Shown here: positions 6,297-24,364 of the stretch, piece by piece | How positions within the stretch are numbered: the stretch's first letter is position 1 | Layout of the letters: each line of letters starts with the position of its first letter | Made by a program: the position numbers and the translations under genes | Assembly: GCA_001819395.1 (NCBI GenBank) | Contig: MHMQ01000011.1 | Location: 1 to 42,661, forward strand | Source: Candidatus Niyogibacteria bacterium RIFCSPLOWO2_01_FULL_45_48 | GTDB lineage: Bacteria > Patescibacteriota > Minisyncoccia > HO2-45-28 | Direction of reading: 5' to 3' | Length of the DNA stretch: 42,661 bases | Notes under the pieces: model-generated | What the model was told of the DNA's origin: nothing | The model's input: only the letters and a program-made list of their open reading frames with translations | The model's database searches: none

Positions 6297-6371
6297 TAGT
6301 AAAATCATACCTATTTTGTCTCGTATTGGCAAAATAGGCAGTTTTTATTCTTCCATATACTTCTATATCAG

Positions 6372-6715
6372 TGGAGGTGGGGAGAATCGCACTCCCGTTT
6401 GAATTGATTTATTAAGAAGTTTCTACAGTTTTAGTTTCGCTTGGTTTCGATTGCGGCTATAAGCGAAACGAAAGTGCCGCAAAAGTCGCTCCTTAAATGT
6501 TGTGCCGAATCGGAGCTCTTCGGCATTGAGCCTCAAAATTTCACACCCGCGCTTTCCTATGAGACATCAGAAAGTCGGATGGCTTAAGCAATTAAGCGTA
6601 AGCGAGTGCTGGTTGATAGTTTGCACTTGGAACTGTTTGGAAAATTTTACAAGGACACCAAACATCCTTGAACTGCGCCTCTTAACGCCTCAACTCATCG
6701 AAGCTAGGCACCCCC
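6372..6715 (-). ncRNA. ssrA: tmRNA, one-piece, about 344 nt; tag (A)ANYQPALAYA
   Basis: 5' GGGGGTG pairs with 3' CACCTCC-A including a G3.U70 pair; GCTTCGA D-loop-like motif; T arm GGGAG-TGCGATT-CTCCC; tag ORF GCA AAC TAT CAA CCA GCA CTC GCT TAC GCT TAA at 6624-6592; smpB nearby. Confidence 0.96.
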
Positions 6716-7850: not shown

Positions 7851-8303
7851 TTAATTGTAAGCTGTTTTGAGCTCTCTTTCTATCTTTCTTTTTGATTCAC
7901 GCTTTTTTATTTTTTCGCGTTTGTCGTATTTTTTCTTTCCTTTGGCGATGCCGACCTCCGTTTTAAGCATGCGCCCTTTGATGTATACACGGATTGGCAC
8001 GATTGTTAGGCCCCTTTCCTCGCCTTTTCCCGAAAGATATTTTATCTCGCTTTTTTTCAAAAGAAGTTTTCTTGTTCTCTGCGGTTCGTATTCCTTTGGC
8101 GTGTTTGCCGGCTGATACGGAGGAATTTCCATGCCGACAACAAACGCTTCGCCTCCGCGGATGATGACGCGCGCACCGAGAATTGAGCCAAGTTTGTTTC
8201 GCAGCGCCTTAACCTCAAATCCGCGCAATTCTAACCCGGCCTCAAATTTTTCAAGGATTTCATAATCAAAAAAAACTTTTTTATTTTGCAGCAAATCCGC
8301 CAT
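7851..8303 (-). CDS. smpB: SsrA-binding protein
   Basis: NKKVFFDYEILEKFEAGLELRGFEVKALR, RTRKLLLKK, AKGKKKYDKREKIKKR. Confidence 0.98.
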   Translation of the reverse strand: MADLLQNKKVFFDYEILEKFEAGLELRGFEVKALRNKLGSILGARVIIRGGEAFVVGMEIPPYQPANTPKEYEPQRTRKLLLKKSEIKYLSGKGEERGLTIVPIRVYIKGRMLKTEVGIAKGKKKYDKREKIKKRESKRKIERELKTAYN

Positions 8304-8313
8304 GCGCAAATTA

Positions 8314-8799: not shown

Positions 8800-9246
8800 C
8801 TAAGCGAGTATCACTGTTATTACTCCTATTACTGTAATTATAAGCCCGAATACTTTTTGGACGGTCATGGTCTCTCCTAAAAAGTACCAAAGGATTATTG
8901 CGCTGACCAGAGCGGGGTATGTCGCGGCTATCGCGTTTGTTACCGATTCTTTTCCGGGGCTTAGGTAATAAGCGATTACCACTACGAGGCCCCCCGAAGA
9001 CCAGAACCAGGCGATGGCCCATCCCGACCAATGCCACGACCACGATTTGGCCGGCGCAAACCCGGTAAAAAGCATGACCAGCGCCACGAAAAATATGTTG
9101 CCCATCGTTGCCCAGATAAAAGGCATGGCCGGGTGGAATTTATCCGGACCCATAACTTGGTTCATTTTTACCGAAAGAGGAGCAAGCGTTCCCCAACTGA
9201 AGCAGACGTAAAGCGACAAAAGCAGGGCAAGAGTGTATCTGGACAC
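8800..9246 (-). CDS. small DMT/EamA-family membrane transporter
   Basis: About five TM helices; AIAATYPALVSAIILWYFLGETMTVQKVFGLII is an EamA C-terminal pattern; GGAG before GTG; TTGACT-16-TATAAT at 9314-9287. Confidence 0.8.
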   Translation of the reverse strand: MSRYTLALLLSLYVCFSWGTLAPLSVKMNQVMGPDKFHPAMPFIWATMGNIFFVALVMLFTGFAPAKSWSWHWSGWAIAWFWSSGGLVVVIAYYLSPGKESVTNAIAATYPALVSAIILWYFLGETMTVQKVFGLIITVIGVITVILA

Positions 9247-9339
9247 GCCGTTTCTCCGCCGAGGAAAATTTTAAAATTCCTAAGTCATTATATTCCTCGG
9301 ATTTTCATAGTCAACGTTTTAATATATTGTATAAATAAG

Positions 9340-10914
9340 ATGATAAGAGGGGGGATTATTAAAGAAATAAAAAAAATTGCGCCGAAGGACGCCAAATTTT
9401 CGGTTTCGCGCCCGGAACGTCCCGCTTTTGGTGACTACTCGTCCAATGTCGCGATGGTGGTCGCAAAAAAATTTGGTAAAAATTCAAGAGAACTTGCCGA
9501 AGATTTTAAAGAGAAGCTCGGAAAGTCAAAACTTTTTGAAAGAATTGACGTGGCTGGCCCGGGCTTTTTGAATTTTTGGATTTCGCCGGAAGTTGTCGGC
9601 GAAGGTTTTTTGGAATTCGCGCGCGCGAAAGGTCTGCCCAAATTCAACATCGGCAAAAATAAAAAAATACAAGTTGAATATGTGTCGGCTAATCCGACTG
9701 GCCCTCTTACTTTGGCCAATGGTAGAGGGGGATTTTTGGGCGACATTTTATCAAGCGTTTTGGCGCTCGTCGGTTTTAAAGTTGAGCGCGAATACTATAT
9801 AAACGATACCGGAAAGCAAATAATAACACTTGGAAAATCAATGCTTGCGTCGGCCGGACTGATTCCCGACGAAGAAACATTTTACAAGGGGGGTTACATA
9901 AAAGATTGGGCTAAAAAAAATAAAGCAAAAATTAAGAAACTCGGAAAAGATCCTCTGAAACTTGGCCAAGAAGCCGCAAAAGATTTTTTGAAGTCAATTA
10001 AAAACACTCTTAAGAGTATAGCCAAAATAAAATTTGACCGCTGGACGTCGGAAGACAAATATATCCACAAAAAAAACTGGATCAAAAAAGCGCAGGCGCT
10101 TTTTGAGAAAAAAAATATGGTTTACGAAAAAGACGGCGCGACCTGGCTTAAGACAACAGATTTCGCCGATGACAAAGACAGGGTTTTGATTACTTCCGAC
10201 GGCTACCCGACGTATTTTTTGGCTGACGCCGGGCATTATTTTGAATCAGTCGTGCGCGGATTCAAGAAAAAAATAAATATTTTGGGGCCCGACCATTACG
10301 GCTATGTGGCAAGGATTCAAGCTGTTGCCGAAATCGTAGGAATGGAGGACTCGGAAATTATTGTTACCCAAACTGTCCGTCTGATGAAAGGTGGAGAAGA
10401 ATTTAAGATGTCAAAACGCAAAGGGACATTTGTGGCATTTGAAGAATTGATTGATGAAATTGGATTGGATGCCGCGCGTTGGTTTTTTTTGGGGCGCTCC
10501 TCCGATACGCATATTGATATTGATTTGGAATTTGCCAAGAAACAATCGGCCGAAAACCCCGTTTATTATGTCCAGTACGCGCACGCGAGAATGTCGGGAA
10601 TTTTGAGAAAAGCGCAAGTGCACAGCGTTAAGCGTTTAGCGTTTGGTGGTTTTAAAAAAGACGAACTTAAATTTATAAAAAAACTTTTGGAGGTTTCCGA
10701 TGTTTTGGAAGACGTCGCGCGCGATTATCAAGCCCATCGCTTAACGGCTTACGTTTACGAACTCGCGCAGGCATTTTCGGCGTTTTATCGCGATGTGAAA
10801 GTGCTTGACTCCGGCTCGGACGAACCCCGCCGGCTTTTCATAATTAAGTCAGCAAAAAACACTCTAGGCTCGCTTTTGAAACTTCTCGGCATCTCGGCTC
10901 CCGAGAGGATGTAA
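9340..10914 (+). CDS. argS: arginine--tRNA ligase
   Basis: FGDYSSNVAM, AGPGFLNF, VEYVSANPTGPL, REYYIND, DDKDRVL, KMSKRKG, NPVYYVQYAHAR, LLGISAPERM; start placed at ATG 9340. Confidence 0.97.
   Translation: MIRGGIIKEIKKIAPKDAKFSVSRPERPAFGDYSSNVAMVVAKKFGKNSRELAEDFKEKLGKSKLFERIDVAGPGFLNFWISPEVVGEGFLEFARAKGLPKFNIGKNKKIQVEYVSANPTGPLTLANGRGGFLGDILSSVLALVGFKVEREYYINDTGKQIITLGKSMLASAGLIPDEETFYKGGYIKDWAKKNKAKIKKLGKDPLKLGQEAAKDFLKSIKNTLKSIAKIKFDRWTSEDKYIHKKNWIKKAQALFEKKNMVYEKDGATWLKTTDFADDKDRVLITSDGYPTYFLADAGHYFESVVRGFKKKINILGPDHYGYVARIQAVAEIVGMEDSEIIVTQTVRLMKGGEEFKMSKRKGTFVAFEELIDEIGLDAARWFFLGRSSDTHIDIDLEFAKKQSAENPVYYVQYAHARMSGILRKAQVHSVKRLAFGGFKKDELKFIKKLLEVSDVLEDVARDYQAHRLTAYVYELAQAFSAFYRDVKVLDSGSDEPRRLFIIKSAKNTLGSLLKLLGISAPERM
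10624..10644 (+). repeat. three tandem heptamers inside argS
   Basis: AGCGTTA AGCGTTT AGCGTTT (21 nt). Confidence 0.7.
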
Positions 10915-10978
10915 TACGATTGACTTTTTGGCACAAAAATGCAAGTTTTAGATTGGGTTTTTGAAAAAGGGGAGCGCA

Positions 10979-11368
10979 ATGTTCTTAAAATGGCTGGTTT
11001 TTGCGCTGGCTTCTTTTGTCGGAATAGGACTTTTTCAGTGGGCGCTTTACACCGGCTTCGAGCTTGCTAAAACAAAAACATTTTTAGGATACATGTTCCC
11101 GAATCTGTTTACTTTTTTTGTTTTCTGGTCGCTGTTGATAAGTTTTATTATGGCTTTACCAAACGGGATAGTTTGGGCGATTTCCAGCATTGCCTTAAAT
11201 GAATGGTTTGGCAAAGCATGGGTTATCCATCTTACTTTCGGCGCAATGAGTTTGCTTGCCGCGGCCACGACCTTCTGGTTTAAGTTTGGAGAACTTCCCA
11301 CAAAAGGGACATTGGTTGGACTTACTCTGGCGATCGTCGGAGCTTTAATAAGCGCTCTTTGGCGATAA
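10979..11368 (+). CDS. small membrane protein, probably DMT superfamily
   Basis: GGGGAG SD; four or five TM segments; FGELPTKGTLVGLTLAIVG resembles the DMT C-terminus. Confidence 0.7.
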   Translation: MFLKWLVFALASFVGIGLFQWALYTGFELAKTKTFLGYMFPNLFTFFVFWSLLISFIMALPNGIVWAISSIALNEWFGKAWVIHLTFGAMSLLAAATTFWFKFGELPTKGTLVGLTLAIVGALISALWR

Positions 11369-11377
11369 AAACTTTCA

Positions 11378-11402
11378 GCCCCCCGATGATTTATCGGGGG
11401 GC
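11378..11402. terminator. GC-rich hairpin between convergent genes
   Basis: GCCCCCCGAT-GATTT-ATCGGGGGGC. Confidence 0.7.
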
Positions 11403-11403
11403 C

Positions 11404-11652
11404 TTAAACTGTCTCGACGACTTTGATGACGAACGCGGAAGCGCGAACAGAACTTCTTTTCGCGATTTCCGGCGTTACAATGCCGCCGATTTTTGTTGCG
11501 GGGGCAGCGGTCGCGATGACCATGCCCCTTTTTTCGTTTTCAACTTCCACTTCCGCTCTCCTCCAGTCGTCCAAATTGCTGCCGGGAATACCGTGTTCTT
11601 TTCTCCAATCGTAGATCTCCCTTGCCCGTTTGTTGATGGCCGACCCGTACAT
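11404..11652 (-). CDS. DUF2934-domain small protein
   Basis: INKRAREIYDWR...GSNLDDWRRAEVEV fits the DUF2934 pattern; AGGAGGTG SD before ATG 11652. Confidence 0.8.
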   Translation of the reverse strand: MYGSAINKRAREIYDWRKEHGIPGSNLDDWRRAEVEVENEKRGMVIATAAPATKIGGIVTPEIAKRSSVRASAFVIKVVETV

Positions 11653-11672
11653 CGGAATCACCTCCTTCTTAC

Positions 11673-11701
11673 ATTATACCAGCAAAACATTGTTTTGTCA
11701 A
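11673..11701 (-). promoter_or_regulatory. consensus sigma70 promoter
   Basis: TTGACA (11701-11696), 17 nt, TATAAT (11678-11673), upstream of the DUF2934 gene. Confidence 0.8.
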
Positions 11702-11754
11702 CATCAACAAAACTTTGTTTTGCCTCCCTCTTTCTATATTATAACCATATATAT

Positions 11755-14700
11755 ATGCAAGACAAAGATAAGAAATCCACAGAGACGGAAATTCTGGAAT
11801 ACTGGCAAAAAAATAAAATTTTTGAGCAAACGCTTGCGAAAACAAAAAAGGGCAAGCCGTTTGTTTTTTACGAAGGTCCGCCTACCGCAAATGGCAAGCC
11901 CGGCATTCATCATGTGGAAGGCCGGTCTTTTAAGGATGTTATATTGCGCTACAAAACAATGCGCGGTTTTCGCGTGCCAAGAGTTGCCGGCTGGGACACG
12001 CACGGGTTGCCGGTTGAAGTTGAGGTTGAAAAAGAGCTCGGTCTGAAAAGCAAAAAAGAAATTGAAGAGTATGGCATTGAGGCGTTCAATAAAAAATGCC
12101 GCGAGTCCGTATGGAAGTATAAAAAGCTGTGGGAAGACATGACTGCCAGAATGGGGTTTTGGATTGATATGGATAAGCCGTACGTCACTTATGAAAACTC
12201 GTATATGGAAAAACTTTGGGGGGTTATTAAAAACTTTTCTGTCAGAAAACTTCTTTATAAAGATTACAAAGTTGTGCCGTGGTGTCCCAGGTGCGGAACG
12301 TCTCTTTCTTCGCACGAACTTGCGCAGGGGTATAAAAAGATAAAAGAAAAATCAATTTATATAAAATTTAAGGCCAAAGACAAAGCTGGCGGAGTCTTTT
12401 ATTTTTTGGTTTGGACCACAACCCCGTGGACTTTGCCGGGAAATGTTGCTTTGGCGGTAAATCCCAAGGCGACATACGTTGTCGCCGAAAAAGACGGCGC
12501 TCGTTTTGTGTTGGTGAAAGAACGAGCCGGGGTTTTGGAAGAAAATTATAAAATTATCAGCGAAAGATCCGGACAAAGCTTTCTCGGGGTTGAATATGAA
12601 CCGCTTTATCGGACTTCCGGCTCCGAGCTTCCGATATTCAATTACAAAGTAATTGGGGCTAATTTCGTTTCAACCGAAGACGGCACGGGCATTGTTCACA
12701 TCGCTCCGGCTTTCGGCGCGGACGACCAGAAAGTCGGCAAAGAAAACGGACTTACAACCCTTATAACGACCGCTGAAAACGGAAAAATGCTAACGCCCGA
12801 TTATTTGTGGAACGGAAAATATTTTCAGGAAGCAAATCAGTTCATCGTTCAAAACCTAAAAGAGCGAAACCTGTTTTTAAAGGAGGAGTCCCACGAACAC
12901 GACTATCCTTTTTGCTGGCGGTGCGATTCGGCTTTGATGTATCTGGCAAAAAATTCCTGGTTTTTAAAAACAACTGCGGTTAAAAAAGAAATGCTCGCCG
13001 AAAACAAGAAAATCGGCTGGCACCCAGAATTCATAAAAGACGGCCGATTTGGCCAGTGGCTGAAAGAAAACGTGGACTGGGCGATATCAAGAGAACGTTA
13101 TTGGGGGGTGCCTTTGCCGGTTTGGATTTGTGAAAAATGCGGACATCAAGAAGTTGTCGGCTCTATAAACGACTTGGATAAACTCGGCCCAAAAAGGACG
13201 ACTAGGGTTTTTGTTGTGCGCCATGGCGAGGCCGAACACAACGTAAAAGGCATAGTTGGGCCGGCGATTCCGGCACGGGATTTTGATAACCACCTTACCA
13301 AAAAAGGAATTAAAGAGGCTGAAAAGACGGCCAGGGCCTTAAAAAAAGAAAAAATAGATTTAATCATTTCCTCTCCGCTTAACCGCACGAGACAAACTTC
13401 GGAGATTCTCGCCAGTACTCTGGGCGTTAAGATGGAAGTCAACGAACAAATTTATGATTATAATATTGGAGATTTTCACGACAGGAGTATTAAAGATTCG
13501 CATATAGAGTTTCCGTTTGAGCGAAGGCTTTGTGAGCCGTTTCCCAACGGCGAGTCGCTTCGCGACGTTAGGGCGAGAATGATGATGGAGTTAAGACGCA
13601 TCGTCAGAAGCAATTCCGGCAAAAATATTTTGATAGTCAGCCACGGCGATCCAATGTGGGTTTTAAATGCCTCACTTGAAGGTTTGGAAGAAAAAAACTA
13701 TCCAAAATCATGGTATCCAAAGACAGGAGAAGCAAAAGAGCTAAAACTCCACAACTGGCCGTACAACAGGGACGGCGAGCTGGATTTGCATAAACCTTAC
13801 GCCGATTTAGTAAATTTGCGGTGTCAAAAATGTGAAGGTAATATGTCGCGTGTAAAAGAAATCGCCGATGTTTGGTTTGACTCCGGAGCAATGCCGTTTG
13901 CTTCCGATGTTCCCGGGTATCCGGCAGATTACATTGTTGAAGCGGTTGACCAAACTCGTGGATGGTTTTACACACTTCTTGCGGTCGCGTCGCTTTTGGG
14001 AAAAAAAGCGCCCTATAAAAACGTAATTTCTTACGGACACGTGTTGGACTCGGAGGGTAAAAAAATGTCCAAACACAAGGGTAATGTAGTTGAACCATCA
14101 CTGCTTTTTGACAAATACGGGGCGGATGCCGTCCGCTGGTATTTTTATACCGTCAATCAGCCGTGGGATGAAAAACTTTTTAAAGAATCGGACATAGCGG
14201 AGGCCTCGCGGAGGTTCCTTAATATTTTCCGGAACTCATTTGTTTACTGGCAGACATATAAAGACAAATCAAAAATCAGCAAGAAAAAACCCAAGCTACT
14301 TATTAATAAATGGCTGAATGCCCGCATGAATCAGGTTGGTTACGAAGCGACCGAAGCTCTTGAAAAATACGACATCGTAAAAGCCGCCAGGGCTATTGAA
14401 AATTTTGTGGCCGAAGATTTATCCAGATGGTACATAAGGCGAATTAGGGATGCGATCAGATTCGGCTCAAAAAAAGAAAAAGAAGAGATATCATCTATTT
14501 TTGGTCTCGCTTTATATGAAGTCGCAAAACTTTCGGCGCCCTTCGTTCCGTTTTTAACAGACAAAATGTTTTTGGATGTAATGGGCAAGGGTAGTATCCA
14601 TCTGGAGAAGTGGACTAAATTTAAAAAACCGTCTAAGGCCGACAAAAAATTGGCTGAAGAGATGAACGAGGCGCGAAGAATTGTTTCGTTAGCACTTGAG

Positions 14701-15123
14701 GCAAGGGCTAAAGCGGGAATTAAAGTACGTCAGCCACTCGCCCTACTTAAGGTAAAATCTAAAAAATTAAATATAAAAAATAAAGAACTTGTCGGGCTGA
14801 TTAAGGGCGAAGTCAATATAAAAGAAATAAAATTTGATCCGAAAATAAAAGATGAAGTTGAATTAGATGTCAACATAACGCCCGAACTTAAAGAAGAAGG
14901 CCAGCTTCGCGAACTTATTCGCCACATTCAGGAGAAAAGAAAAGAAGCAGGCCTCCAGCCGTCAGATAAAACAACTTTTGTCGCTTTAACCGACGACAAA
15001 GGCGAAACCTTTGTAAAGAAGTTTGAGTCGGTCCTCAAAAAAGAAGCGGGGATTAAGGTTATTTCTTTTGGCGAACCCTCAAAACCCAACCGCTTGACTA
15101 TTTCTTTGAAGTTTGGTATATAG
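11755..15123 (+). CDS. ileS: isoleucine--tRNA ligase (type 2) with inserted histidine-phosphatase domain
   Basis: EGPPTANGKPGIHH, GWDTHGLPVE, WTTTPWTLPGN, GTGIVHIAPAFG, DWAISRERYWGVPLP, DVWFDSG, DQTRGWFY, KMSKH; start ATG 11755. Confidence 0.97.
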   Translation: MQDKDKKSTETEILEYWQKNKIFEQTLAKTKKGKPFVFYEGPPTANGKPGIHHVEGRSFKDVILRYKTMRGFRVPRVAGWDTHGLPVEVEVEKELGLKSKKEIEEYGIEAFNKKCRESVWKYKKLWEDMTARMGFWIDMDKPYVTYENSYMEKLWGVIKNFSVRKLLYKDYKVVPWCPRCGTSLSSHELAQGYKKIKEKSIYIKFKAKDKAGGVFYFLVWTTTPWTLPGNVALAVNPKATYVVAEKDGARFVLVKERAGVLEENYKIISERSGQSFLGVEYEPLYRTSGSELPIFNYKVIGANFVSTEDGTGIVHIAPAFGADDQKVGKENGLTTLITTAENGKMLTPDYLWNGKYFQEANQFIVQNLKERNLFLKEESHEHDYPFCWRCDSALMYLAKNSWFLKTTAVKKEMLAENKKIGWHPEFIKDGRFGQWLKENVDWAISRERYWGVPLPVWICEKCGHQEVVGSINDLDKLGPKRTTRVFVVRHGEAEHNVKGIVGPAIPARDFDNHLTKKGIKEAEKTARALKKEKIDLIISSPLNRTRQTSEILASTLGVKMEVNEQIYDYNIGDFHDRSIKDSHIEFPFERRLCEPFPNGESLRDVRARMMMELRRIVRSNSGKNILIVSHGDPMWVLNASLEGLEEKNYPKSWYPKTGEAKELKLHNWPYNRDGELDLHKPYADLVNLRCQKCEGNMSRVKEIADVWFDSGAMPFASDVPGYPADYIVEAVDQTRGWFYTLLAVASLLGKKAPYKNVISYGHVLDSEGKKMSKHKGNVVEPSLLFDKYGADAVRWYFYTVNQPWDEKLFKESDIAEASRRFLNIFRNSFVYWQTYKDKSKISKKKPKLLINKWLNARMNQVGYEATEALEKYDIVKAARAIENFVAEDLSRWYIRRIRDAIRFGSKKEKEEISSIFGLALYEVAKLSAPFVPFLTDKMFLDVMGKGSIHLEKWTKFKKPSKADKKLAEEMNEARRIVSLALEARAKAGIKVRQPLALLKVKSKKLNIKNKELVGLIKGEVNIKEIKFDPKIKDEVELDVNITPELKEEGQLRELIRHIQEKRKEAGLQPSDKTTFVALTDDKGETFVKKFESVLKKEAGIKVISFGEPSKPNRLTISLKFGI
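13190..13750 (+). other. in-frame histidine phosphatase (PGM/CobC-like) domain within IleRS
   Basis: VFVVRHGEA (RHG 13219-13227), LTKKG, IISSPLNRTRQT, GES, ILIVSHG (13639-13647); boundaries approximate. Confidence 0.9.
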
Positions 15124-15173
15124 GAAGAGGAAAACACCCAGCCGATTGTTTTGTTTAACGGGGGAGAAACACA

Positions 15174-15287
15174 ATGCACGTAGATGCTTTAAATCAGGAG
15201 GTTCCGGTTCAATTTTTGTTCCTTGGTCTGGTGGTGATTTTTACGACGATTGCTTTTGTTTATTTCTGGTTTGCGGACAAAAAATAA
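15174..15287 (+). CDS. 37-aa single-pass membrane microprotein (absent from the ORF track)
   Basis: GGGGGAG SD, then MHVDALNQEVPVQFLFLGLVVIFTTIAFVYFWFADKK*; fills the ileS-recO gap. Confidence 0.65.
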   Translation: MHVDALNQEVPVQFLFLGLVVIFTTIAFVYFWFADKK

Positions 15288-15366
15288 CGTCTCAAAATAA
15301 GTTGATGTTAGCTGAAAATTATTCGCGTCGATACGCGAATTTTTTCTTTTGTGTTAAAATTTAATT

Positions 15367-15915
15367 ATGTACAACCTCCACCACACCGAAGGAATAATTT
15401 TGTCGGCAAATGATTTTGGAGAAGCCGACAGGATTTATAATATTTACACCAAAGATTTCGGGAAAGTGTCGGTTCTTGCCAAAGGGGTGCGGCTTGAAAA
15501 ATCAAAATTGCGGCCGCACCTTCTTCCGCTGTCCTTTGCGAGAGTTTCTTTCATTGAAGGCAAAGAATTTATGCGCCTGACCGACGCCGAAGAAATTTTA
15601 TCCCCGCTGCTTGACGAAAAAACTTATTCGGTGTTTTCCGGCGCATGTTCTTTTTTAGAAAGACTGGTTAAGGGTCAAGAAAAAGACGAAGCCGTCTGGG
15701 AACTTTTGCGGAGCCTTTTGTTGAACACCGAGTGTTTAATACATGAGGGGTTTGAAGAAATTTTTCAAGCTCGGCTTTTGTACCGGCTTGGCTATGTTGA
15801 TTCGGAAGATGAAATAATTCGCGGAAACCGTTGGTCTGATTTACCAGATCAAGTACTCAGGGTGGCCGAGTTCAAAAAGATTAGCGCTCAAGGCCTTTCA
15901 GCCAGCCAGCTTTAA
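15367..15915 (+). CDS. recO: DNA repair protein RecO (short form)
   Basis: TEGIILSANDFGEADRIYNIYTKDFGKVSVLAKGVR..KSKL. Confidence 0.92.
   Translation: MYNLHHTEGIILSANDFGEADRIYNIYTKDFGKVSVLAKGVRLEKSKLRPHLLPLSFARVSFIEGKEFMRLTDAEEILSPLLDEKTYSVFSGACSFLERLVKGQEKDEAVWELLRSLLLNTECLIHEGFEEIFQARLLYRLGYVDSEDEIIRGNRWSDLPDQVLRVAEFKKISAQGLSASQL
15721..15739. repeat. short palindromic element inside recO
   Basis: TTGAACAC-CGA-GTGTTTAA; same core as 39823-39843. Confidence 0.7.
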
Positions 15916-15932
15916 AATGCTATAATATTTAA

Positions 15933-17837
15933 ATGAATGACGACGGTCTTGAGCGGCTGAAAAAACGCCTCTACAAAGAGGGTGAGCGGTTTGGGGGCAG
16001 ATTCAGAGAGCCGGAGCTCTCTTATAAACCGGAAAAAGTCGATTCCGGATGGCCCGAGCGTCAGTCTGAAGAAATTTTAGCCGAAGTTCTAAAAGAGCCA
16101 AAACTTTTAAAAATGAAATTTTTATTATGGGCCGGGATTATTTTTGTTTTGGGTGTTATTGTCCTTGCTTCATTTTATCTTTTTGGCGGATTCGGAGCGG
16201 TATCTTCAAGAAATATTGATCTGGTTATATCCGCGCCTCAAGAGGTTGCCGGTGGAGATCTGGTCAGATGGGAAGTGTCGGTTACAAATAAAAATAATGT
16301 TAAGTTCGCTTCGGCAGACCTCGGCTTTAAATATCCGGAAGGTTCGCGTCCGGTGAACGTCATTCCGGGCTCGTTTTTGATCGAAAGGGTTTCTTTGGGT
16401 GAAATTTCGGCGGGAGACACCGTGCGCCGGACTTTTGCCGCCCATGTTTTTGGACCGGAAAATTTTGAAGCCGAAGCCGAGGCGGTCCTCGAATACCGCA
16501 CCGAAGGATCCAACGCGGTTTTTGAAAAAAGCGGCAAAAAAAACATTAAAATAATTCGTTCTCCGGTCGGCGTATCATTTAACGCCGCCGGAGAAATTAA
16601 CGCCGGACGGGAAATCAATTTTGAAGTTAAATACGTTTCAAACTCGTCGGAAACAATAAGAGGCCTCGCTCTCGATCTTACTTACCCTTCCGGATTTATT
16701 TTTAAAAATTCCAGCCTTCAGCCGGCCGAAGGCGAAAACCGCTGGGTTTTGGGCGATCTTGCTCCGGGAAGCGAGAGATCAGTTTCCATATCCGGTGTTT
16801 TTGAGGGGGAAGACATGGAGCAAAAAAACATAACGGCCCAGATCGGAGTTTTGGACGGTAAAAGTTTGTCGGTTTACGGCGCGTCCACCCACTCGTTTAC
16901 TATCAGGCGCATGTTTGTCGATCTCAACGCGCGCATAAACGGACGGGATGATATCACGGCGGTAAAAAGCGGCGATTTGGTGAATGTGAATATTTTTTGG
17001 AAGAACAATCTTCTCCAGTCTGTTCGCGATGTTAATGTGGAGATCGAAGTTTCGGGGGAAGCCTTGGATGAAAAAACAATATCCGTTTTTTCCGGAGCTT
17101 ATCGCGGATTTGAAAAAAAAGTTGTCTGGTCTCCGTCGAGCCTTTCGGATTTGTCTTTGCTTGACCCGGGGGGGTCGGGGCAGTCCAGTTTCAGTTTCAG
17201 AGTGCTCGATGCCGTGTCTTTGTCCAGAGCAAAATTGGTAAATCCGACAATAAAATTGAAAGGCGAAATCAGGCCCGCGTCGAGTCCGGCGGGTTTGGGC
17301 GAATTTGACGTCTCCGGCAAATTCGAGCTTGAACTCAAAATTGAAACATCTTTGCAATTATCAAGCCGGGGGGTTTATTATTCGGCGGTTTTGCCCGGAC
17401 GCGGGCCGCTGCCCCCGCGGGTTGGAGAAGAAACGGTTTATACGGTTATCTGGACTCTGGCCAATGTTTCAAATAATGCAAGCGGTGTCGCGGTCAAGGC
17501 GTCGGTGCCCGCGTACGTTGCTTGGAAAGGCGCCGTGCTTCCTTCGGCCGAAAGCGTGGTTTACGACCCGGCGCGCTTGGAAATAATATGGCGTCCGGGG
17601 GCGATAAAAGCCGGTGTTGGCATAACACAGCCGGCGCGCGAAGTCATGTTCCAGCTAGGCATTATTCCGTCGGTTGACCAGACGGGATCTTCGCCGGTTT
17701 TACTTTTTGATATTTCGGCTTCAGGACGGGACGATTTTACCGGCAATTCCGTAAGCGATGCGGCGTCTTCCCTGACTACGGACATACTTGCCTCGGATAC
17801 TAAAACAAAATCGGGAGACGAAAACGTGGCGCGGTGA
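15933..17837 (+). CDS. membrane-anchored protein with tandem Ig-like/DUF11-like beta domains
   Basis: One TM near the N-terminus; repeated beta-rich units (YPEGS/YPSGF, LGEISAG/LGDLAPG/LSLLDPG). Confidence 0.75.
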   Translation: MNDDGLERLKKRLYKEGERFGGRFREPELSYKPEKVDSGWPERQSEEILAEVLKEPKLLKMKFLLWAGIIFVLGVIVLASFYLFGGFGAVSSRNIDLVISAPQEVAGGDLVRWEVSVTNKNNVKFASADLGFKYPEGSRPVNVIPGSFLIERVSLGEISAGDTVRRTFAAHVFGPENFEAEAEAVLEYRTEGSNAVFEKSGKKNIKIIRSPVGVSFNAAGEINAGREINFEVKYVSNSSETIRGLALDLTYPSGFIFKNSSLQPAEGENRWVLGDLAPGSERSVSISGVFEGEDMEQKNITAQIGVLDGKSLSVYGASTHSFTIRRMFVDLNARINGRDDITAVKSGDLVNVNIFWKNNLLQSVRDVNVEIEVSGEALDEKTISVFSGAYRGFEKKVVWSPSSLSDLSLLDPGGSGQSSFSFRVLDAVSLSRAKLVNPTIKLKGEIRPASSPAGLGEFDVSGKFELELKIETSLQLSSRGVYYSAVLPGRGPLPPRVGEETVYTVIWTLANVSNNASGVAVKASVPAYVAWKGAVLPSAESVVYDPARLEIIWRPGAIKAGVGITQPAREVMFQLGIIPSVDQTGSSPVLLFDISASGRDDFTGNSVSDAASSLTTDILASDTKTKSGDENVAR

Positions 17838-17875
17838 TTGTTGCCAACGGCCGGAGTTGGGCTTAAAATTTCTAA

Positions 17876-19153
17876 ATGACCGAATCAAGTCTCGAAAAAA
17901 TAATCTCTCTTGCAAAAAGGCGCGGGTTTGTGTATCCGGCGTCAGAAATTTACGGGGGGCTTTCCGGTTTTTGGGACTTGGGGCCTTACGGCGCCGAGCT
18001 CGCGCACAACATAAAAGAGCTGTGGTGGAACATGTTTGTAAAAAGCCGGGCTGATGTGTTTGGTGTAGCAACCACAACCATAATGCCGGACGCGGTCTGG
18101 AAGGCAAGCGGGCATCTGGAGGGTTTCGCCGACCCGATGGTTGAATGTGAGGAATGTAAAAAACGTTTTCGTGCCGACCAGATTGAAGGCAAAAAATGTC
18201 CGGAATGCGAAGGAAACCTCGGCTCCCCGCGCCAATTTAATCTTATGTTTAAAACCGAAGGCGGCTACTTGCGTCCCGAAATAGCACAGGGTATGTTTGT
18301 CAATTTTAAAAATGTTTTGGACACAATGCGCGCCGTTCTTCCTTTTGGTTTAGCACAGATAGGGAAGGCCTACAGAAACGAAATAGCGCCTCGCGATTTT
18401 CTTTTTCGCGTTCGCGAATTTGACCTGATGGAATTTGAATATTTTGTGAAAGAGTCGGAGTGGGAGAAACACTTTGAAAGCTGGCGTAAAGAAATGTGGT
18501 TGTGGATTGCGAGCGTGGGAATTGATAAGAACGCGGTTTCGGAGCTTGAAGTGCCTGAAGGCGAGCGGGCGCACTATTCAAAGCGGACGATTGATTTTGA
18601 GTTTGAATATCCTTTCGGAAAAAAAGAGCTTTACGGCTTGGCTTATCGCGCAGACTACGATTTGTCCCGGCATATGAAAGAGTCGGGAGTTGATTTGCGA
18701 TACACCGACCCCGTTTCGGGAGAAAAATTCACACCGCATGTTATTGAGCCGACTTTTGGTTTGGGGCGCACGATTTTGGCCATTTTGACCTCGGCTTACA
18801 CTGAAGACAAGCTGGGAGGAGAGCCAAGAACTTATTTGAAATTAAAGCCGAGCATCGCTCCGGTAAAAGTCGCCGTTTTTCCTCTGGTGAAAAACAAACC
18901 CGCTTTGGTTGAGAGTGCCCGGGAGATTTATAAAAATTTAAAAAAAGAATTTGGCGCCGTTGAATTTGACGACAACGGCAACATCGGCAAACGATATCGC
19001 AGGCAAGACGAAATTGGAACGCCGTGGTGTGTGACGGTTGACTACCAGACATTTGAAGACGACACCGTAACCGTCCGTGATAGAGACACGGGAGAGCAAA
19101 TTCGCCGCAAAATCCAAGAGCTTGGCGGGCGCATAAAAGACATGTTAAGTTAG
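17876..19153 (+). CDS. glyQS: glycine--tRNA ligase, homodimeric (alpha2) type
   Basis: LAKRRGFVYPASEIYGG, VWKASGH, FNLMFKT, QIGKAYRNEI, PHVIEP, IGKRYRRQDEIGTP. Confidence 0.96.
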   Translation: MTESSLEKIISLAKRRGFVYPASEIYGGLSGFWDLGPYGAELAHNIKELWWNMFVKSRADVFGVATTTIMPDAVWKASGHLEGFADPMVECEECKKRFRADQIEGKKCPECEGNLGSPRQFNLMFKTEGGYLRPEIAQGMFVNFKNVLDTMRAVLPFGLAQIGKAYRNEIAPRDFLFRVREFDLMEFEYFVKESEWEKHFESWRKEMWLWIASVGIDKNAVSELEVPEGERAHYSKRTIDFEFEYPFGKKELYGLAYRADYDLSRHMKESGVDLRYTDPVSGEKFTPHVIEPTFGLGRTILAILTSAYTEDKLGGEPRTYLKLKPSIAPVKVAVFPLVKNKPALVESAREIYKNLKKEFGAVEFDDNGNIGKRYRRQDEIGTPWCVTVDYQTFEDDTVTVRDRDTGEQIRRKIQELGGRIKDMLS

Positions 19154-19187
19154 AATAGGTTGTTTTTTGTAAGTTAAGGAGGTGGGC

Positions 19188-19436
19188 ATGTTCTACGTTC
19201 TGACTCCGGTTTGGTTTGTCGTGGCATGGTTATTTTTTGGCTACTTGGCTGCGGCTATTCTGAAATACGATTTAGTAGAGACTTATCCCGAATGGCGCGG
19301 ACCAGATATTGCTTTTTCGCTATTTATCATATTTTTGGGTCCCCTCATGTTCGTTGCCGTGTCTATTATATGTTTGCTGTGTCACAAAAAGCTGGGTATG
19401 CGCCTGAACATCTTCAAAATAATCATTAAACGATAA
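19188..19436 (+). CDS. small two-TM hypothetical membrane protein
   Basis: AAGGAGGT SD before ATG 19188; two hydrophobic segments; terminator downstream. Confidence 0.65.
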   Translation: MFYVLTPVWFVVAWLFFGYLAAAILKYDLVETYPEWRGPDIAFSLFIIFLGPLMFVAVSIICLLCHKKLGMRLNIFKIIIKR

Positions 19437-19456
19437 GTTGTTTAAAAAACCAAGTT

Positions 19457-19492
19457 ACGCCGAACCTTCTAGGTTCGGCGTTTATTTTTTTT
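19457..19492 (+). terminator. intrinsic terminator
   Basis: ACGCCGAACCT-TCT-AGGTTCGGCGT then T-run. Confidence 0.85.
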
Positions 19493-19514
19493 ACGTAAAT
19501 GTTATAATTTTGAT

Positions 19515-20786
19515 ATGAAATTCTACAAAAAGATTTTACCCTCCGGGCTTAAGGTTATAATTTCTCCAATGTCGGGGACGGAGGCGATGACTCTTTTGGT
19601 CTTGGTTGGCACCGGCTCAAAATACGAGACCAAAAACATCAACGGCATCTCTCATTTTTTGGAACATTTGTTTTTTAAGGGCACCAAGCATCGTCCGGAG
19701 CCCGGTGAGGTAAACCGCGCTCTTGACGGGTTAGGCTCCGAACATAACGCCTTTACCTCAAAAGAAGTAACGGGATATTGGGTTAAAGCCGCGGGAAAAC
19801 ATTTTGATGCCGCCTTGGACATAGTTTCGGATATTTTGCTTGAGCCTCTTTTTAAAGCCGATGAAATTGAGCGCGAGCGCGGGGTGATTTTGCAGGAAAT
19901 AAGTATGTATGAAGATATGCCCCAGCGCAGAATAGGCGATTTGTGGGAAACATTGCTGTACGGCGATCAGCCTGCCGGATGGGATATCGCCGGGACCAAA
20001 GCAATAATCAACCGCATAAAACGAGACGAGATTTTGGATTATAAAGAAAAACAGTATGTCGCTTCAAACGCCTTGGTTGTTGTTGCGGGCAATATTGATG
20101 CCAAAAGCACAGAGAAAAAAATTATTAAAGCTTTTTCTTCTTTTAATCACGGAAAAGCTTTTCCGAAAAAACCGATCAAGGAGGTTCAGAAAAATCCAAG
20201 TACACACTTTATGTATAAAGAAACCGATCAGAGCCATCTGATTCTTGGTTTTCGCGGTTATAATATGTTTGACGATCGCAGATATGCTCTGGATCTTTTG
20301 AGCGTGATTTTGGGCGGGAATATGTCCAGTCGATTTTTCATGGAAATAAGGGAAAATCTGGGTTTGGCATATTATGTAAGAGCCTCAGCTCAAAATTATA
20401 CAGATTCCGGCTATTTGGCTGGTTCAGCCGGGGTTCCGCACGAAGAACTGAAAAGAGTTATTGAGTTAATGGTTAAAATATTAAAAGACGTTAAGACCCG
20501 GGGAGTTTCGGAGAGTGAAATTAAATTCGCAAAAGACTACTTAAGAGGGTCAATGGCTCTGTCTTTTGAATCTTCCGATGAAATCGCCACTTTTTTGGGG
20601 GAACAATCTTTGTTTTACAAAAAAATAGAAACACCGGATGAAGTCCTAAGGCATATTGAAAAAGTGACGCGCGGTGATATTATGAAAGCGGTTAAAGAAC
20701 TGGTGCGTCCTGACAAAATGAATTTGGCGGTAATAGGACCGCACCGTGATTCAAAAGATTATATAAATATTCTCAAACGAATTTGA
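19515..20786 (+). CDS. M16 family (pitrilysin/insulinase) zinc peptidase
   Basis: GISHFLEHLFFKGT (HxxEH), NAFTS, ERERGVILQE, SSRFFMEIRENLGLAY. Confidence 0.95.
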   Translation: MKFYKKILPSGLKVIISPMSGTEAMTLLVLVGTGSKYETKNINGISHFLEHLFFKGTKHRPEPGEVNRALDGLGSEHNAFTSKEVTGYWVKAAGKHFDAALDIVSDILLEPLFKADEIERERGVILQEISMYEDMPQRRIGDLWETLLYGDQPAGWDIAGTKAIINRIKRDEILDYKEKQYVASNALVVVAGNIDAKSTEKKIIKAFSSFNHGKAFPKKPIKEVQKNPSTHFMYKETDQSHLILGFRGYNMFDDRRYALDLLSVILGGNMSSRFFMEIRENLGLAYYVRASAQNYTDSGYLAGSAGVPHEELKRVIELMVKILKDVKTRGVSESEIKFAKDYLRGSMALSFESSDEIATFLGEQSLFYKKIETPDEVLRHIEKVTRGDIMKAVKELVRPDKMNLAVIGPHRDSKDYINILKRI

Positions 20787-20788
20787 AT

Positions 20789-21808
20789 ATGCCAAATATT
20801 ACTAAAATAGAAATTTCAACCGGAACTTTTATACGTGCCCTGCTTGTGGTCTTGGGGCTGGTTTTTTTGTACCTGATAAGAGATGTGGTCGCGGTGGTGC
20901 TTCTTTCGGTTGTGATAGCTTCAGCCATTGAGCCCGCGGCCCAGTGGTTTATGCGCTATCGTTTGCCGAGAATTTTGAGCGTGCTTTTGGTCTATATAAT
21001 ATCCTTTGCTATTTTGGCCGCCGCCTTTTCGCTTGTCATACCCCCGCTTTTTTCAGAAATATCCCAGGTTTCATCAAAGTCTCTTTTCCAGACCGCTTCC
21101 GGAGCGCTTTTTGAGTTTGTGCCGGAGCTGCCAATTTCAATATCGCAGACACTCACAAGCCTTCTGGATAAGGCCGGAGTTTATCTGGAACAGCTGGCCG
21201 GAGGATTTTTCCAGGCCACTTCGCTTGTGTTTGGCGGAGCGCTTTCTTTTATTTTGGTTGTGGTAATATCTTTTTACCTTTCGGTGCAGGAAAGAGGAAT
21301 TGAAAACTTTTTAAGAATAGTCACGCCCATTGAATACGAAAGATACATATTGGATTTGTGGTCCAGGGCCCGTAAAAAAATAGGCGGATGGATGCAGGCG
21401 CAGATACTGCTCGGACTTTTAATAGGCGTTATGGTTTATATAGGTCTTACGGTTTTACAGATCAAATTTGCCTTATCGCTTGCGGTTGTCGCCGCCATTT
21501 TCGAGCTTATTCCGGTTTTTGGGCCGGTGCTTGCGGCAATTCCGGCGGTTCTGGTGGCTTTTTTGCAAAAGCCGATACTGGGGCTTGTCATAATAATTTT
21601 TTATTTTGTCGTCCAGCAGTTTGAAAACCATCTCATAGTGCCGGTTGTTTTTAAAAAGGCCGTAGGCGTTCCGCCGATTCTGGTGGTCATCGCTTTGATA
21701 GTCGGCGGAAAACTGGGCGGGTTTCTGGGACTTCTTCTCGCAGTGCCATTGGCAGCCGTGCTGGTTGAGTTTTTGAACGATGTTGTCGAAAGAAAACAAA
21801 TAAAGTAA
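20789..21808 (+). CDS. AI-2E family (PerM/UPF0118) transporter
   Basis: Multi-TM; FELIPVFGP, VQQFENHLIVP, GGFLGLLLAVPLAA. Confidence 0.93.
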   Translation: MPNITKIEISTGTFIRALLVVLGLVFLYLIRDVVAVVLLSVVIASAIEPAAQWFMRYRLPRILSVLLVYIISFAILAAAFSLVIPPLFSEISQVSSKSLFQTASGALFEFVPELPISISQTLTSLLDKAGVYLEQLAGGFFQATSLVFGGALSFILVVVISFYLSVQERGIENFLRIVTPIEYERYILDLWSRARKKIGGWMQAQILLGLLIGVMVYIGLTVLQIKFALSLAVVAAIFELIPVFGPVLAAIPAVLVAFLQKPILGLVIIIFYFVVQQFENHLIVPVVFKKAVGVPPILVVIALIVGGKLGGFLGLLLAVPLAAVLVEFLNDVVERKQIK

Positions 21809-23386: not shown

Positions 23387-24224
23387 CTCGCACGCGCATT
23401 TGCAATTTAAGGCGTTTGATGCTGATCGCGACGAAGTTATAAAACGAACGCTTGAGGGCGGTGTGTTTTGTATTAATGTCGGGACGCAAAAAGACACTTC
23501 TCGCGCGGCGGTGGAACTTGCCGAAAAACACGAAGGATTTTGGGCGGCTGTCGGGCTGCACCCTATTCATACCGAAGAATCTTTTCACGACGAACAGGAA
23601 ATTTCGGGTTCAGGCGTGTTTAAAAGCCGCGAAGAAGTTTTCGATTCAGATTTTTATGAAAAGTTAGCAAAGCATCCCAAAGTTGTAGCAATAGGCGAAT
23701 GCGGTTTTGATTATTACCGAGCAATGCCCGACTCCCGTAAAAAACAGGAGGATGCTTTTTGCTCGCAGGTTAGGTTGGCTAAAAAAATTGGGAAGCCCAT
23801 CATGCTTCATTGCAGGCCGTCTCAAAATCCAGACAAATCTTATTCTGATGACGCTTATTTGGACATGTTCCGTGTTTTAAAAGAAGAGGGAGGTAATTCT
23901 GTGGGCGGTAACGTGCATTTTTTTGTCGGTTCAACTGATATTGCTAAAAAATTTTTGGAAATTGGATTTTCGTTTTCATTTTCGGGAGTTATCACAATTA
24001 CAAATATGTACGACGAAGTCGTTAAATTTCTGCCTTTGGATAAAATTTTAATTGAAACTGACTCTCCTTATGCGGCGCCAATTCCATATCGCGGAAAACG
24101 AAATGAGCCGCCATATGTTGAAGAAGTTGCTAAGCGTCTCGCAGAACTTCATGGAAAATCGTTTGAAGAAATAGCCGAACTAACCACTCAAAACGCAAAG
24201 AAAGTTTTTAATTTAAAATTTTAA
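23376..24224 (+). CDS. tatD: TatD family metal-dependent DNase
   Basis: MLIDSHAHL, VGLHP, AIGECGFDY, LHCR, ETDSPY, RGKRNEP; follows metG. Confidence 0.95.
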   Translation: MLIDSHAHLQFKAFDADRDEVIKRTLEGGVFCINVGTQKDTSRAAVELAEKHEGFWAAVGLHPIHTEESFHDEQEISGSGVFKSREEVFDSDFYEKLAKHPKVVAIGECGFDYYRAMPDSRKKQEDAFCSQVRLAKKIGKPIMLHCRPSQNPDKSYSDDAYLDMFRVLKEEGGNSVGGNVHFFVGSTDIAKKFLEIGFSFSFSGVITITNMYDEVVKFLPLDKILIETDSPYAAPIPYRGKRNEPPYVEEVAKRLAELHGKSFEEIAELTTQNAKKVFNLKF

Positions 24225-24231
24225 CTCACCA

Positions 24232-24275
24232 AAACTTGCACACATCAATACGATTGTAGCGATGTGTGCAAGTTT
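24232..24275. repeat. perfect 15-bp inverted repeat
   Basis: AAACTTGCACACATC-N14-GATGTGTGCAAGTTT. Confidence 0.85.
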
Positions 24276-24289
24276 GAAAAGTTGAAAAA

Positions 24290-24326
24290 AATTAAAAAGA
24301 AAAAGCTCCGACGAATCGTCGGAGCT
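24290..24326 (-). terminator. terminator for the ALDH gene
   Basis: AGCTCCGACG-AAT-CGTCGGAGCT preceded by an A-run on the + strand (U-run on the - strand). Confidence 0.75.
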
Positions 24327-24338
24327 GGGTTTACGGGG

Positions 24339-24361
24339 TGGTCCAAGTCCGACTTGGACCA
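24339..24361. repeat. short perfect palindromic element
   Basis: TGGTCCAAGT-CCG-ACTTGGACCA. Confidence 0.85.
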
Positions 24362-24364
24362 AAA

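Follow-up and report, generated by a model that had tools for sequence, protein, structure and literature searches.

The stretch of DNA analysed here (the window) comprises all 42,661 nucleotides of contig MHMQ01000011.1, forward strand, from Candidatus Niyogibacteria bacterium RIFCSPLOWO2_01_FULL_45_48 (assembly GCA_001819395.1), an organism assigned to the Parcubacteria group in the NCBI taxonomy. It contains an ileS gene whose product, a type-2 isoleucyl-tRNA synthetase (IleRS), carries an entire histidine phosphatase domain nested within its second zinc knuckle (Table 1). The gene order in the window is argS, an 840-bp spacer, ileS with its insert, and recO. The longest reading frame of the ileS region runs from 11359 to 15123, and its likely start is the ATG at 11755 (MQDKDKK...). 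Since a profile search of the genome (808,436 bases in 39 contigs, estimated to be 93% complete) gave only one match to ileS above the cut-off, the interrupted IleRS must be the one that works in this cell.

Table 1. Coordinates of the nested phosphatase, of its host gene and of related or neighbouring genes; window positions unless a contig is named.
Feature	Position	Strand	Remarks
ileS, type-2 IleRS with nested phosphatase	11755..15123	+	1122 aa; TIGR00392, Pfam
Nested branch-1 histidine phosphatase, residues 478-672	13186..13770	+	~195 aa; Pfam His_Phos_1
CEKC, first Cys pair of zinc knuckle 2	13129..13140	+	loop hosting the insert
RHG: Arg489, His490, Gly491	13219..13227	+	His490 predicted phospho-accepting nucleophile
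Arg544 of SSPLNRTRQT	13384..13386	+	predicted phosphate pocket
Glu600 of GES	13552..13554	+	predicted proton donor; GES at 13549
His630 of VSHGDP	13642..13644	+	second catalytic His; VSHG at 13636
DLHKPYAD ... CQKC, second Cys pair of zinc knuckle 2	13783..13833	+	return into IleRS
GIHH, non-canonical class I signature motif, residues 50-53	11902..11913	+	G/AXHH form
CPRC, first Cys pair of zinc site 1	12283..12294	+	before the CP1/editing domain
CWRC, second Cys pair of zinc site 1	12913..12924	+	after the CP1/editing domain
KMSKS-type loop, residues 770-774	14062..14076	+	reads KMSKH
argS, arginyl-tRNA synthetase	9031..10914	+	upstream neighbour; Pfam Arg_tRNA_synt_N, tRNA-synt_1d, DALR_1
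recO-like gene	15367..15915	+	conserved downstream neighbour of ileS; Pfam RecO_N
Second, free His_Phos_1 gene of the same genome	C15:22021-22593 (L002:1489-2121)		211 aa; 3' of ABC-transporter genes

Between positions 13129 and 13833, the ileS frame translates without a stop into 235 amino acids (aa), which begin with CEKC and end with CQKC. An earlier reading made from the letters alone (the sequence-only reading) had placed an in-frame histidine phosphatase with its main motifs between these two Cys pairs, and both the translation, which includes LTKKG as the expected LTxxG, and Pfam (His_Phos_1, PF00300; E 1.3e-34, 120 bits against a gathering cut-off of 21.7) bear this out. SRERYWG at 13087, ahead of zinc knuckle 2, and DLHKPYAD at 13783, after the insert, are likewise where that reading had them; the domain itself stood, but its length had to be corrected from about 185 to about 195 residues upon alignment with insert-less IleRS of relatives. 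According to this alignment the insert sits at the tip of the second zinc knuckle. In insert-less IleRS the Cys pairs enclose C-x2-C ... (S)xxEL, about 12 residues, and D(L/V)HKPxxD ... C-x(1-2)-C, and residues 478-672 replace this loop tip of about 12 residues, in agreement with the statement that the zinc-binding connective-peptide (CP) loop is short in ordinary type-2 IleRS. The stretches GHQEVVGSINDL and ELDLHKPYADLVNLRC, located between the Cys pairs, align as the IleRS zinc knuckle proper outside the insert, and in insert-less IleRS they are joined by that same short loop.

The sequence-only reading had also seen no intein-type ends. A Pfam search of the ileS product gave no match to the Hint/intein family, and the junctions, which read ...DKLGPKRTT... 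and ...NRDGELDLH..., lack the residues of an intein splice junction (C/S/T at the N-junction; HN followed by C/S/T at the C-junction), so that an intein or other protein-splicing element was rejected on both grounds.

To assess the constraint on the nested domain, we compared 113 full-length fused IleRS that are 34-79% identical to the window's protein within the insert. R489, H490, S540, R544, R608, H630 and P633 are invariant in this set, E600 is found in 112 of the 113 and D632 in 110; HGDP is typical of the insert's subfamily, whose own motif is HGDP(L/M)W. The catalytic core residues are also retained in 70 of 73 His_Phos domains drawn from all contexts. On the zinc-knuckle side, H679, P681, D684, C690 and C693 occur in all 113 proteins, and in insert-less IleRS too, and the CEKC pair is nearly as constant (C459 in 109 of 113, C462 in 107). 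Relative to the window, the insert has a median identity of 40.0% and the CP1 editing region one of 42.9%, against 62.5% in the Rossmann core and 51.0% over the entire host; the near-equal values of insert and editing region point to similar selection on both, and the insert thus appears to be constrained about as tightly as the editing domain. As judged from the invariance of its catalytic set, the insert is a complete and apparently active phosphatase. We take the roles of its RHG residues to be those customary in the histidine phosphatase family: His490 is predicted to take the phosphate, Arg489, Arg544 and His630 to hold it, and Glu600 to protonate the leaving group.

The host enzyme was analyzed in the same manner. 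The NCBIfam equivalog for ileS, TIGR00392, scores 816.2 bits (cut-off 621.4) over two stretches split by the insert, and Pfam finds tRNA-synt_1 in two pieces (E 3.8e-103) with His_Phos_1 between them, followed by Anticodon_1 and DUF5915. It is of type 2 by its C-terminus, where DUF5915 takes the place of IleRS1's zinc-binding domain, and its model most closely resembles structures of IleRS2 and of eukaryote-type IleRS. Signature motifs of the G/AXHH form are known in IleRS2, where PMC10485003 links them to mupirocin hyper-resistance; among the 113 fused IleRS, 75 have GIHH, 12 another G/AXHH form and 19 the canonical HXGH. The first zinc site is kept as well, C177 and C180 (CPRC) and C387 and C390 (CWRC) being invariant in 107 fused IleRS. 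KMSKH is unique to the window's IleRS among the 113 homologues, 102 of which have KMSKS. From the sole ileS gene and the conserved core residues, we infer that the ileS product is an intact, working type-2 IleRS that aminoacylates and edits.

Structure prediction is in line with this assignment. The full-length AlphaFold2 (AF2) model, built with 107 sequences, has a mean predicted local distance difference test (pLDDT) value of 92.9 and a predicted template-modelling score (pTM) of 0.88, with pLDDT of 89-98 through the insert and its junctions. In Foldseek its best match in the Protein Data Bank (PDB) is P. megaterium IleRS2 (8C9D; E 6e-89, target template-modelling score (TM) 0.82), and T. 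thermophilus IleRS (1ILE, target TM 0.90) and the yeast IleRS-tRNA complex (8WND) were matched as well. The architecture and fold are those of the bacterial type-2 enzymes solved so far (P. megaterium 8C8U/8C8V/8C8W/8C9D; T. thermophilus 1ILE), down to DUF5915, two Cys4 zinc sites and the G/AXHH variant; the solved enzymes, however, end their second zinc knuckle in a short loop, where the window's IleRS has an enzyme domain of 195 residues.

Modelled alone, the insert reaches a pLDDT of 93.0 and a pTM of 0.90, and the model matches PspA (4IJ6/4IJ5; E 1.5e-14, TM 0.80) and PhoE (1H2E; TM 0.82), followed by GpgP (4QIH), the E. histolytica phosphoserine phosphatase (6M1X), CobC (6E4B) and the riboflavin-pathway HFP (9MMH); a sequence search of the PDB with the insert gave a similar list. 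The nearest solved relatives by sequence and fold, PspA, GpgP, PhoE, CobC and the riboflavin-pathway HFP, are thus all small-molecule phosphatases. The fold shared with PspA, M. tuberculosis GpgP (Rv2419c), G. stearothermophilus PhoE, CobC (6E4B, 6NRU) and HFP 9MMH superposes at TM 0.75-0.82 and root-mean-square deviations of 2.2-3.4 A, and PspA of H. thermophilus and other small branch-1 phosphatases have the same Arg-His...Arg...Glu...His set and a similar size of about 190-210 aa. These enzymes are free-standing and act on known small substrates, whereas the insert, only 21-25% identical to them, is nested in a synthetase.

None of the NCBIfam equivalog cut-offs is reached by the insert, whose best matches (RNase H/acid phosphatase, archaeal cofactor-dependent phosphoglycerate mutase (dPGM), CobC and PspA) score 78-83 bits against cut-offs of 163-350. 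The cut-offs of the dPGM models lie above it (dPGM_arch 79.7 against 225 bits, GpmB 70.5 against 261, pgm_1 40.3 against 81.7), as do PspA (77.7 against 350), CobC (77.8 against 162.9) and SixA (49.2 against 74.5). Nonetheless, with a modelled fold close to both, the insert may work like PspA or CobC without belonging to either family. Its best NCBIfam match, the RNase H/acid phosphatase of the Rv2228c type (NF005567; E 3e-23, 82.8 bits against a cut-off of 326, hence not a member), shows that fusion of His_Phos to a nucleic-acid enzyme has a precedent; there the phosphatase and RNase H lie end to end, in contrast to the nesting seen here. That IleRS can harbour a foreign enzyme domain is known from a curated family, the IleRS with a nested GNAT domain (NF040702, 'ileS_w_GNAT'), which the window's IleRS matches only weakly (313 bits against a cut-off of 1999) and in which the GNAT domain differs from the phosphatase in fold, chemistry and site. 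A search of the NCBIfam library with the window's protein brought no model for a His_Phos-bearing IleRS to its cut-off. A further parallel within the synthetases is the CP1 editing domain of IleRS, ValRS and LeuRS, likewise a whole hydrolase nested in a Rossmann-fold loop and evolving at a rate similar to that of the insert; CP1, however, is universal and acts on mischarged tRNA, whereas the nested phosphatase is lineage-specific and dispensable and varies in position and copy number.

The fusion is not confined to this genome. Public data contain the identical protein on 10 contigs; with residues 459-693 as the query, 842 of 2563 candidate proteins matched at E <= 1e-3. The 120 matches listed all combine PF00133 with PF00300 at lengths of about 700-1360 aa, under names that include Niyogibacteria, Harrisonbacteria, Spechtbacteria, Giovannonibacteria, Nealsonbacteria, Brennerbacteria, Pacebacteria and similar; NCBI calls the fused proteins only 'class I tRNA ligase family protein', and their architecture is visible in the precomputed Pfam annotations. 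Within the class, 104 of 141 sampled genomes (the window's own included; E <= 1e-15) have a match, which lies in a long IleRS frame in 96 of them (five with cut frames of 669-942 aa) and in a free gene only in 8, leaving 37 with no match. The IleRS-phosphatase fusion is therefore the majority state in the class, and it is present in all four other genomes of the family, two of which belong to the window's genus. For the phylum, 225 of 401 sampled genomes show some match at E <= 1e-5, free and fused forms combined, and among the 150 matches listed the zinc-knuckle IleRS form is found in at least 47 genomes besides the window's. The E-values and the 842 homologous fused proteins exclude chance. 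The mention of similar fusions in annotations of the candidate phyla radiation (CPR), made in the sequence-only reading, is supported by these numbers, and with the fusion common and the catalytic residues conserved among fused homologues, no objection that it had raised on grounds of sequence holds. Because the domain is intact, the loop short in ordinary enzymes, the fusion widespread and the catalytic set conserved, a bifunctional synthetase-phosphatase, as first suggested there, is the natural reading of the architecture.

The insertion points, which the sequence-only reading had recommended mapping, extend to further sites in IleRS, ValRS and AlaRS. Twenty long frames with His_Phos matches were fetched from the phylum, and 17 of them, including every frame above 700 aa, are synthetases. 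Nine are ValRS or ValRS-like (L003-L007, L009, L011, L012, L021), with the phosphatase in the loop homologous to the IleRS zinc-knuckle site (site A) in eight and about 20 residues further on in one; three are the class II enzyme AlaRS (L013, L014, L022), with the phosphatase in a hairpin flanked by EIWNNVFM and VDTGMG; three IleRS carry it at a second site (site B), directly before the anticodon-binding domain; and two IleRS have two tandem copies and lack the Cys pairs. The remaining three frames (L017, L018, L019; 560-631 aa) join a 2-hydroxyacid dehydrogenase to His_Phos. Two genomes (G214, G314) have the phosphatase in both ValRS and IleRS.

A similar preference was obtained outside the phylum sample. 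When 1.84 billion representatives were searched with a profile, 138,108 His_Phos proteins came up at E <= 1e-3. From the best 150, 25 long ones were scanned: 20 are class I synthetases with 1-4 copies, four are arrays of His_Phos only and one is a QueC fusion. Copies occupy two separate sites of one protein in P0248, P0254 and P0255, and P0242 holds three complete copies and a cut fourth; degenerate copies appeared only beside an intact one (P0243_d1, P0330_d1, P0275_d2, P0278_d2, P0235_d2). The 120 best results of a word-indexed search for longer proteins comprise 29 IleRS (nine of them tandem), three ValRS and one eukaryotic thiamine-pyrophosphate (TPP) enzyme fusion; the other 87 are double-domain proteins, about 400-500 aa long and for the most part with cyanobacterial names. 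The non-synthetase fusions encountered overall (L017-L019, P0350, P0232) are thus to 2-hydroxyacid dehydrogenase, to QueC (579 aa) and, with two His_Phos domains, to the eukaryotic TPP enzyme (995 aa).

In the domain tree, the AlaRS, IleRS-site-B and dehydrogenase sets form separate clades, with Shimodaira-Hasegawa-like approximate likelihood ratio test (SH-aLRT) values of 99, 99 and 98, the ValRS copies are scattered over several places, and two tandem copies are not sisters. This suggests several captures of the phosphatase, in a number that the weak backbone precludes counting. Synthetases of this phylum also host other domains: two IleRS combine a GNAT acetyltransferase domain with a histidine phosphatase (L008:3838-8190 on the minus strand, and P0373), and a 1415-aa IleRS (L020:1156-5400, minus strand) contains, in frame, a Y1 transposase domain of the IS200-like type (residues 299-375, E 6e-10) together with a site-B phosphatase. 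The IleRS of genome G389 (L023:1-3453, minus strand), insert-less at site A, carries another insertion, some 187 aa long, which lies in the N-terminal half between the positions of window residues 242 and 248 and in which no Pfam family was recognized.

A free form of the phosphatase was found next to ileS in relatives that lack the fusion. In three insert-less same-class genomes of family f14 (L023-L025), argS is followed by a free gene for a His_Phos protein of 188-213 aa, then by one or two further genes and an insert-less ileS, whose product exceeds 1151 aa in L023 and measures 1006-1034 aa where the frame is complete. Family f156 is represented by three genomes (L044, L045, L047); there the free His_Phos gene comes after argS, ileS begins 18-90 bp behind it, and recO is next; recO also lies 3' of ileS in L025 and L026, as it does in L044, L045 and L047. 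Altogether, the closest free homologue stands between argS and ileS in six of the eight non-fused same-class genomes, the other two having a free copy elsewhere, and ileS was not found within 5 kb of any of 16 free paralogues from other lineages. These syntenic proteins are the best free matches to the hidden Markov model (HMM) of the insert (E 6e-67 to 1e-60 in f156, 4e-49 to 2e-44 in f14), and apart from each other their nearest tree neighbours are IleRS inserts. A quick tree nests them among the inserts at low support (SH-aLRT 80), and in the approximately unbiased (AU) test a single clade of the 29 inserts is not rejected (p 0.835), the tree backbone being weak. Synteny and similarity support the view that insert and free argS-ileS gene belong to the same gene lineage, with both fusion and fission as possible directions; the phosphatase would then have entered ileS from the position ahead of it, or left ileS for that position.

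A relic of such a free gene in the 840-bp argS-ileS spacer of the window was sought and rejected: tblastn returned only matches of 12-20 aa (E >= 0.02), and a six-frame HMM search of the spacer for the phosphatase gave nothing better than E 0.71. Rfam found no known RNA there at its gathering score or at E <= 1. The minus strand of the spacer contains an open reading frame of 85 aa (11404-11661) with a match to DUF2934 just under the cut-off (E 2e-4), a perfect TTGACA-17-TATAAT promoter-like site from 11701 to 11673 and an 11-bp terminator-like hairpin from 11403 to 11377; the RNA fold of 11250-11754 has a z of -4.84. The free paralogue on contig 15 of the window's own genome is the most distant of the free paralogues (insert-HMM E 7e-20). 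Further synthetase genes are clustered from 9031 to 28634, namely argS, ileS, a class II synthetase with tRNA-synt_2b and HGTP_anticodon (17876-19150), metG (21809-23383) and leuS (26211-28634), and only ileS among them carries the phosphatase. The window also holds a tmRNA gene near smpB (6369-6715 and 7851-8306, both on the minus strand; Rfam 103.6 bits, unreported by ARAGORN).

As to function, we tentatively favour, as a possible rather than a settled reading, that the nested domain is a tethered, autonomous small-molecule phosphatase, perhaps acting on nucleotides. Placed at the zinc-knuckle tip, a PhoE/PspA-like phosphatase of some 195 aa would fold independently and work as an autonomous phosphomonoesterase; its substrate would be a small, diffusible phosphoester rather than one handed over from the IleRS active sites, our best guess being a nucleoside monophosphate (for example AMP, which charging and editing release) or a small phospho-metabolite of a similar kind, and the fusion would tie the dose and location of the phosphatase to the synthetase. 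The occurrence at several sites, in hosts of both synthetase classes, in arrays and in free form fits a domain that acts alone. Among the roles proposed in the sequence-only reading, the tethering of a metabolic enzyme and the dephosphorylation of a nucleotide by-product come closest to this model. The gene neighbours of 18 free paralogue loci lean mildly towards nucleotide metabolism (NUDIX at three of the 18, SurE at one and Tmk at one, next to enolase at two, NYN/HD-OB at two, and unrelated genes).

Several observations weigh against the small-molecule reading. The neighbour evidence for nucleotides is mixed and weak, given that enolase, NYN and unrelated genes occur too. The hosts are almost only synthetases (17 of 17 long frames; 20 of 25 long representatives), which would fit a tRNA-directed job equally well, and the near-exclusive choice of synthetase hosts, together with a free gene kept between two synthetase genes, speaks for a link to charging. 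Hydrolysis of AMP would waste a nucleotide that the organism probably cannot make. His_Phos_1 is missing from four of five insert-less genomes of the same class, all estimated to be 100% complete, and the function of the domain is therefore accessory. The full-length model is confident throughout (pTM 0.88) and shows no floppy linker, which could mean a fixed, functional orientation on IleRS. By its profile scores, finally, the insert is placed by NCBIfam in no characterised equivalog.

Some more specific tasks were considered and discarded. The insert is not needed as the cell's pyrophosphatase: a soluble pyrophosphatase (PF00719) was not found in the genome, but its H+-pyrophosphatase scores 862 bits, and the removal of pyrophosphate is thereby already covered. 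Nor is it needed as the phosphoglycerate mutase, the tethered glycolytic enzyme of the sequence-only reading, given that a mutase of the cofactor-independent (iPGM) type is present; enolase was not found in this 93%-complete genome. A role as the only activity that heals tRNA ends was rejected because the CCA-adding enzyme of the genome carries an HD domain, and in E. coli the HD domain of that enzyme acts as a 2',3'-cyclic phosphodiesterase and as a phosphatase. That site-A inserts are basic (median pI 9.35) was likewise rejected as a sign of tRNA binding, the host IleRS being basic as well (median 9.0, with 105 of 113 above pI 8), and is regarded as a trait of the lineage.

We judge it somewhat unlikely, though second in rank, that the domain is instead a phosphatase of the tRNA acceptor end, which would remove a 2'/3'-phosphate or pyrophosphate blocking A76 and so free the tRNA for charging. 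Such blocks could come from RNase damage or from a CCA-pyrophosphorylating toxin, and the synthetase that first meets the blocked tRNA would free it. The hosts IleRS, ValRS and AlaRS each bind the tRNA at its acceptor end, synteny links the free form to argS and ileS, an accessory, non-essential domain suits repair or defence, and the rigid, confident full-length model would be compatible with such a task. A natural source of blocked ends is provided by toxSAS toxins, which pyrophosphorylate the tRNA CCA end and select particular tRNAs (10.1101/2021.04.30.441581, 10.1101/2024.07.05.602228). However, at least four insertion sites, in three synthetase families of both classes, proteins with two sites, arrays of up to four copies and free orthologues argue against a geometry tuned to A76, and they weaken the tRNA-end role raised in the sequence-only reading. 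The small-molecule substrates of the nearest solved relatives, the HD domain on the CCA-adding enzyme, and an insert basicity that is matched by the hosts and hence is no sign of RNA binding point in the same direction. The broader proposition that synthetase-embedded phosphatases de-block A76 on the charging enzyme itself, as a built-in tRNA repair or counter-defence for epibiotic minimal bacteria, is more doubtful.

An ordinary metabolic phosphatase of the phosphoserine, sugar-phosphate or mutase type, mechanistically unlinked to charging, also appears unlikely to us. On this view its arrival in synthetase loops would reflect their tolerance of insertions and the steady expression that they ensure, and synthetase loops of the phylum do host GNAT and Y1-transposase domains as well (L008, L020, P0373). 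Phosphoserine phosphatases (4IJ5/4IJ6, 6M1X) are the top structural matches of the insert, the 2-hydroxyacid dehydrogenase fusions of the phylum (L017-L019) resemble serine-pathway enzymes, and free paralogues adjoin enolase at two of 18 loci. An unlinked enzyme does not readily account, however, for the repeated capture of one family almost by synthetases alone (exceptions being limited to the four His_Phos-only arrays, QueC, the eukaryotic TPP enzyme and the dehydrogenase), nor for the conserved place of the free form between argS and ileS; moreover, the genome already has its iPGM-type mutase, and the dehydrogenase-fused domains are a separate clade (SH-aLRT 98 and 93).

That the insert would serve without catalysis, as a sensor of a phospho-ligand or as a structural or binding surface on IleRS, is very unlikely: the fold binds phosphate, the model suggests tight packing and some copies in multi-copy proteins have lost the catalytic residues, but single-copy hosts retain the full catalytic set (113 of 113, with Glu600 in 112) and degenerate copies were seen only alongside another intact one. 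Very little weight is given to a protein phosphatase that reverses phosphorylation of the synthetase or a partner, for instance by Hip-type kinase toxins. Such toxins target synthetases, which are the hosts here, and the superfamily has members that act on proteins (SixA, PGAM5, Sts); the SixA score of the insert, however, stays under the cut-off (49.2 against 74.5 bits), and its nearest structures are small-molecule enzymes. The chance of an artefact, be it a chimeric assembly or an intein-like element excised from the protein, is negligible in the face of an identical protein on 10 contigs, 842 homologous matches, fusion in 96 of 141 class genomes and the lack of both the Hint/intein family and splice-junction residues.

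Aminoacyl-tRNA synthetases are among the best-studied enzymes, and the editing domain is, to our knowledge, their only accepted nested catalytic module. Full-text searching of the literature gave no report of a synthetase with a histidine phosphatase inside, although supplements may list such architectures; the word 'phosphatase' is absent from the main text of a 2026 survey of 97,678 IleRS architectures (PMC13752280), of a 2026 domain-insertion survey (PMC13114784) and of the AARS Online paper (PMC11580382). The window's IleRS presents a second, unrelated hydrolase inside the catalytic core of an essential synthetase, with natural split forms in which a free phosphatase accompanies an insert-less IleRS. 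Its repeated capture by IleRS, ValRS and AlaRS points to an undescribed phosphate-removing step tied to charging or, at minimum, to a strong, unexplained bias of a single enzyme family towards synthetases as hosts. A blocked tRNA end as the substrate would mean a new kind of tRNA repair; with a small molecule as the substrate, the family would offer a clear natural case of evolution from gene neighbour to nested domain.

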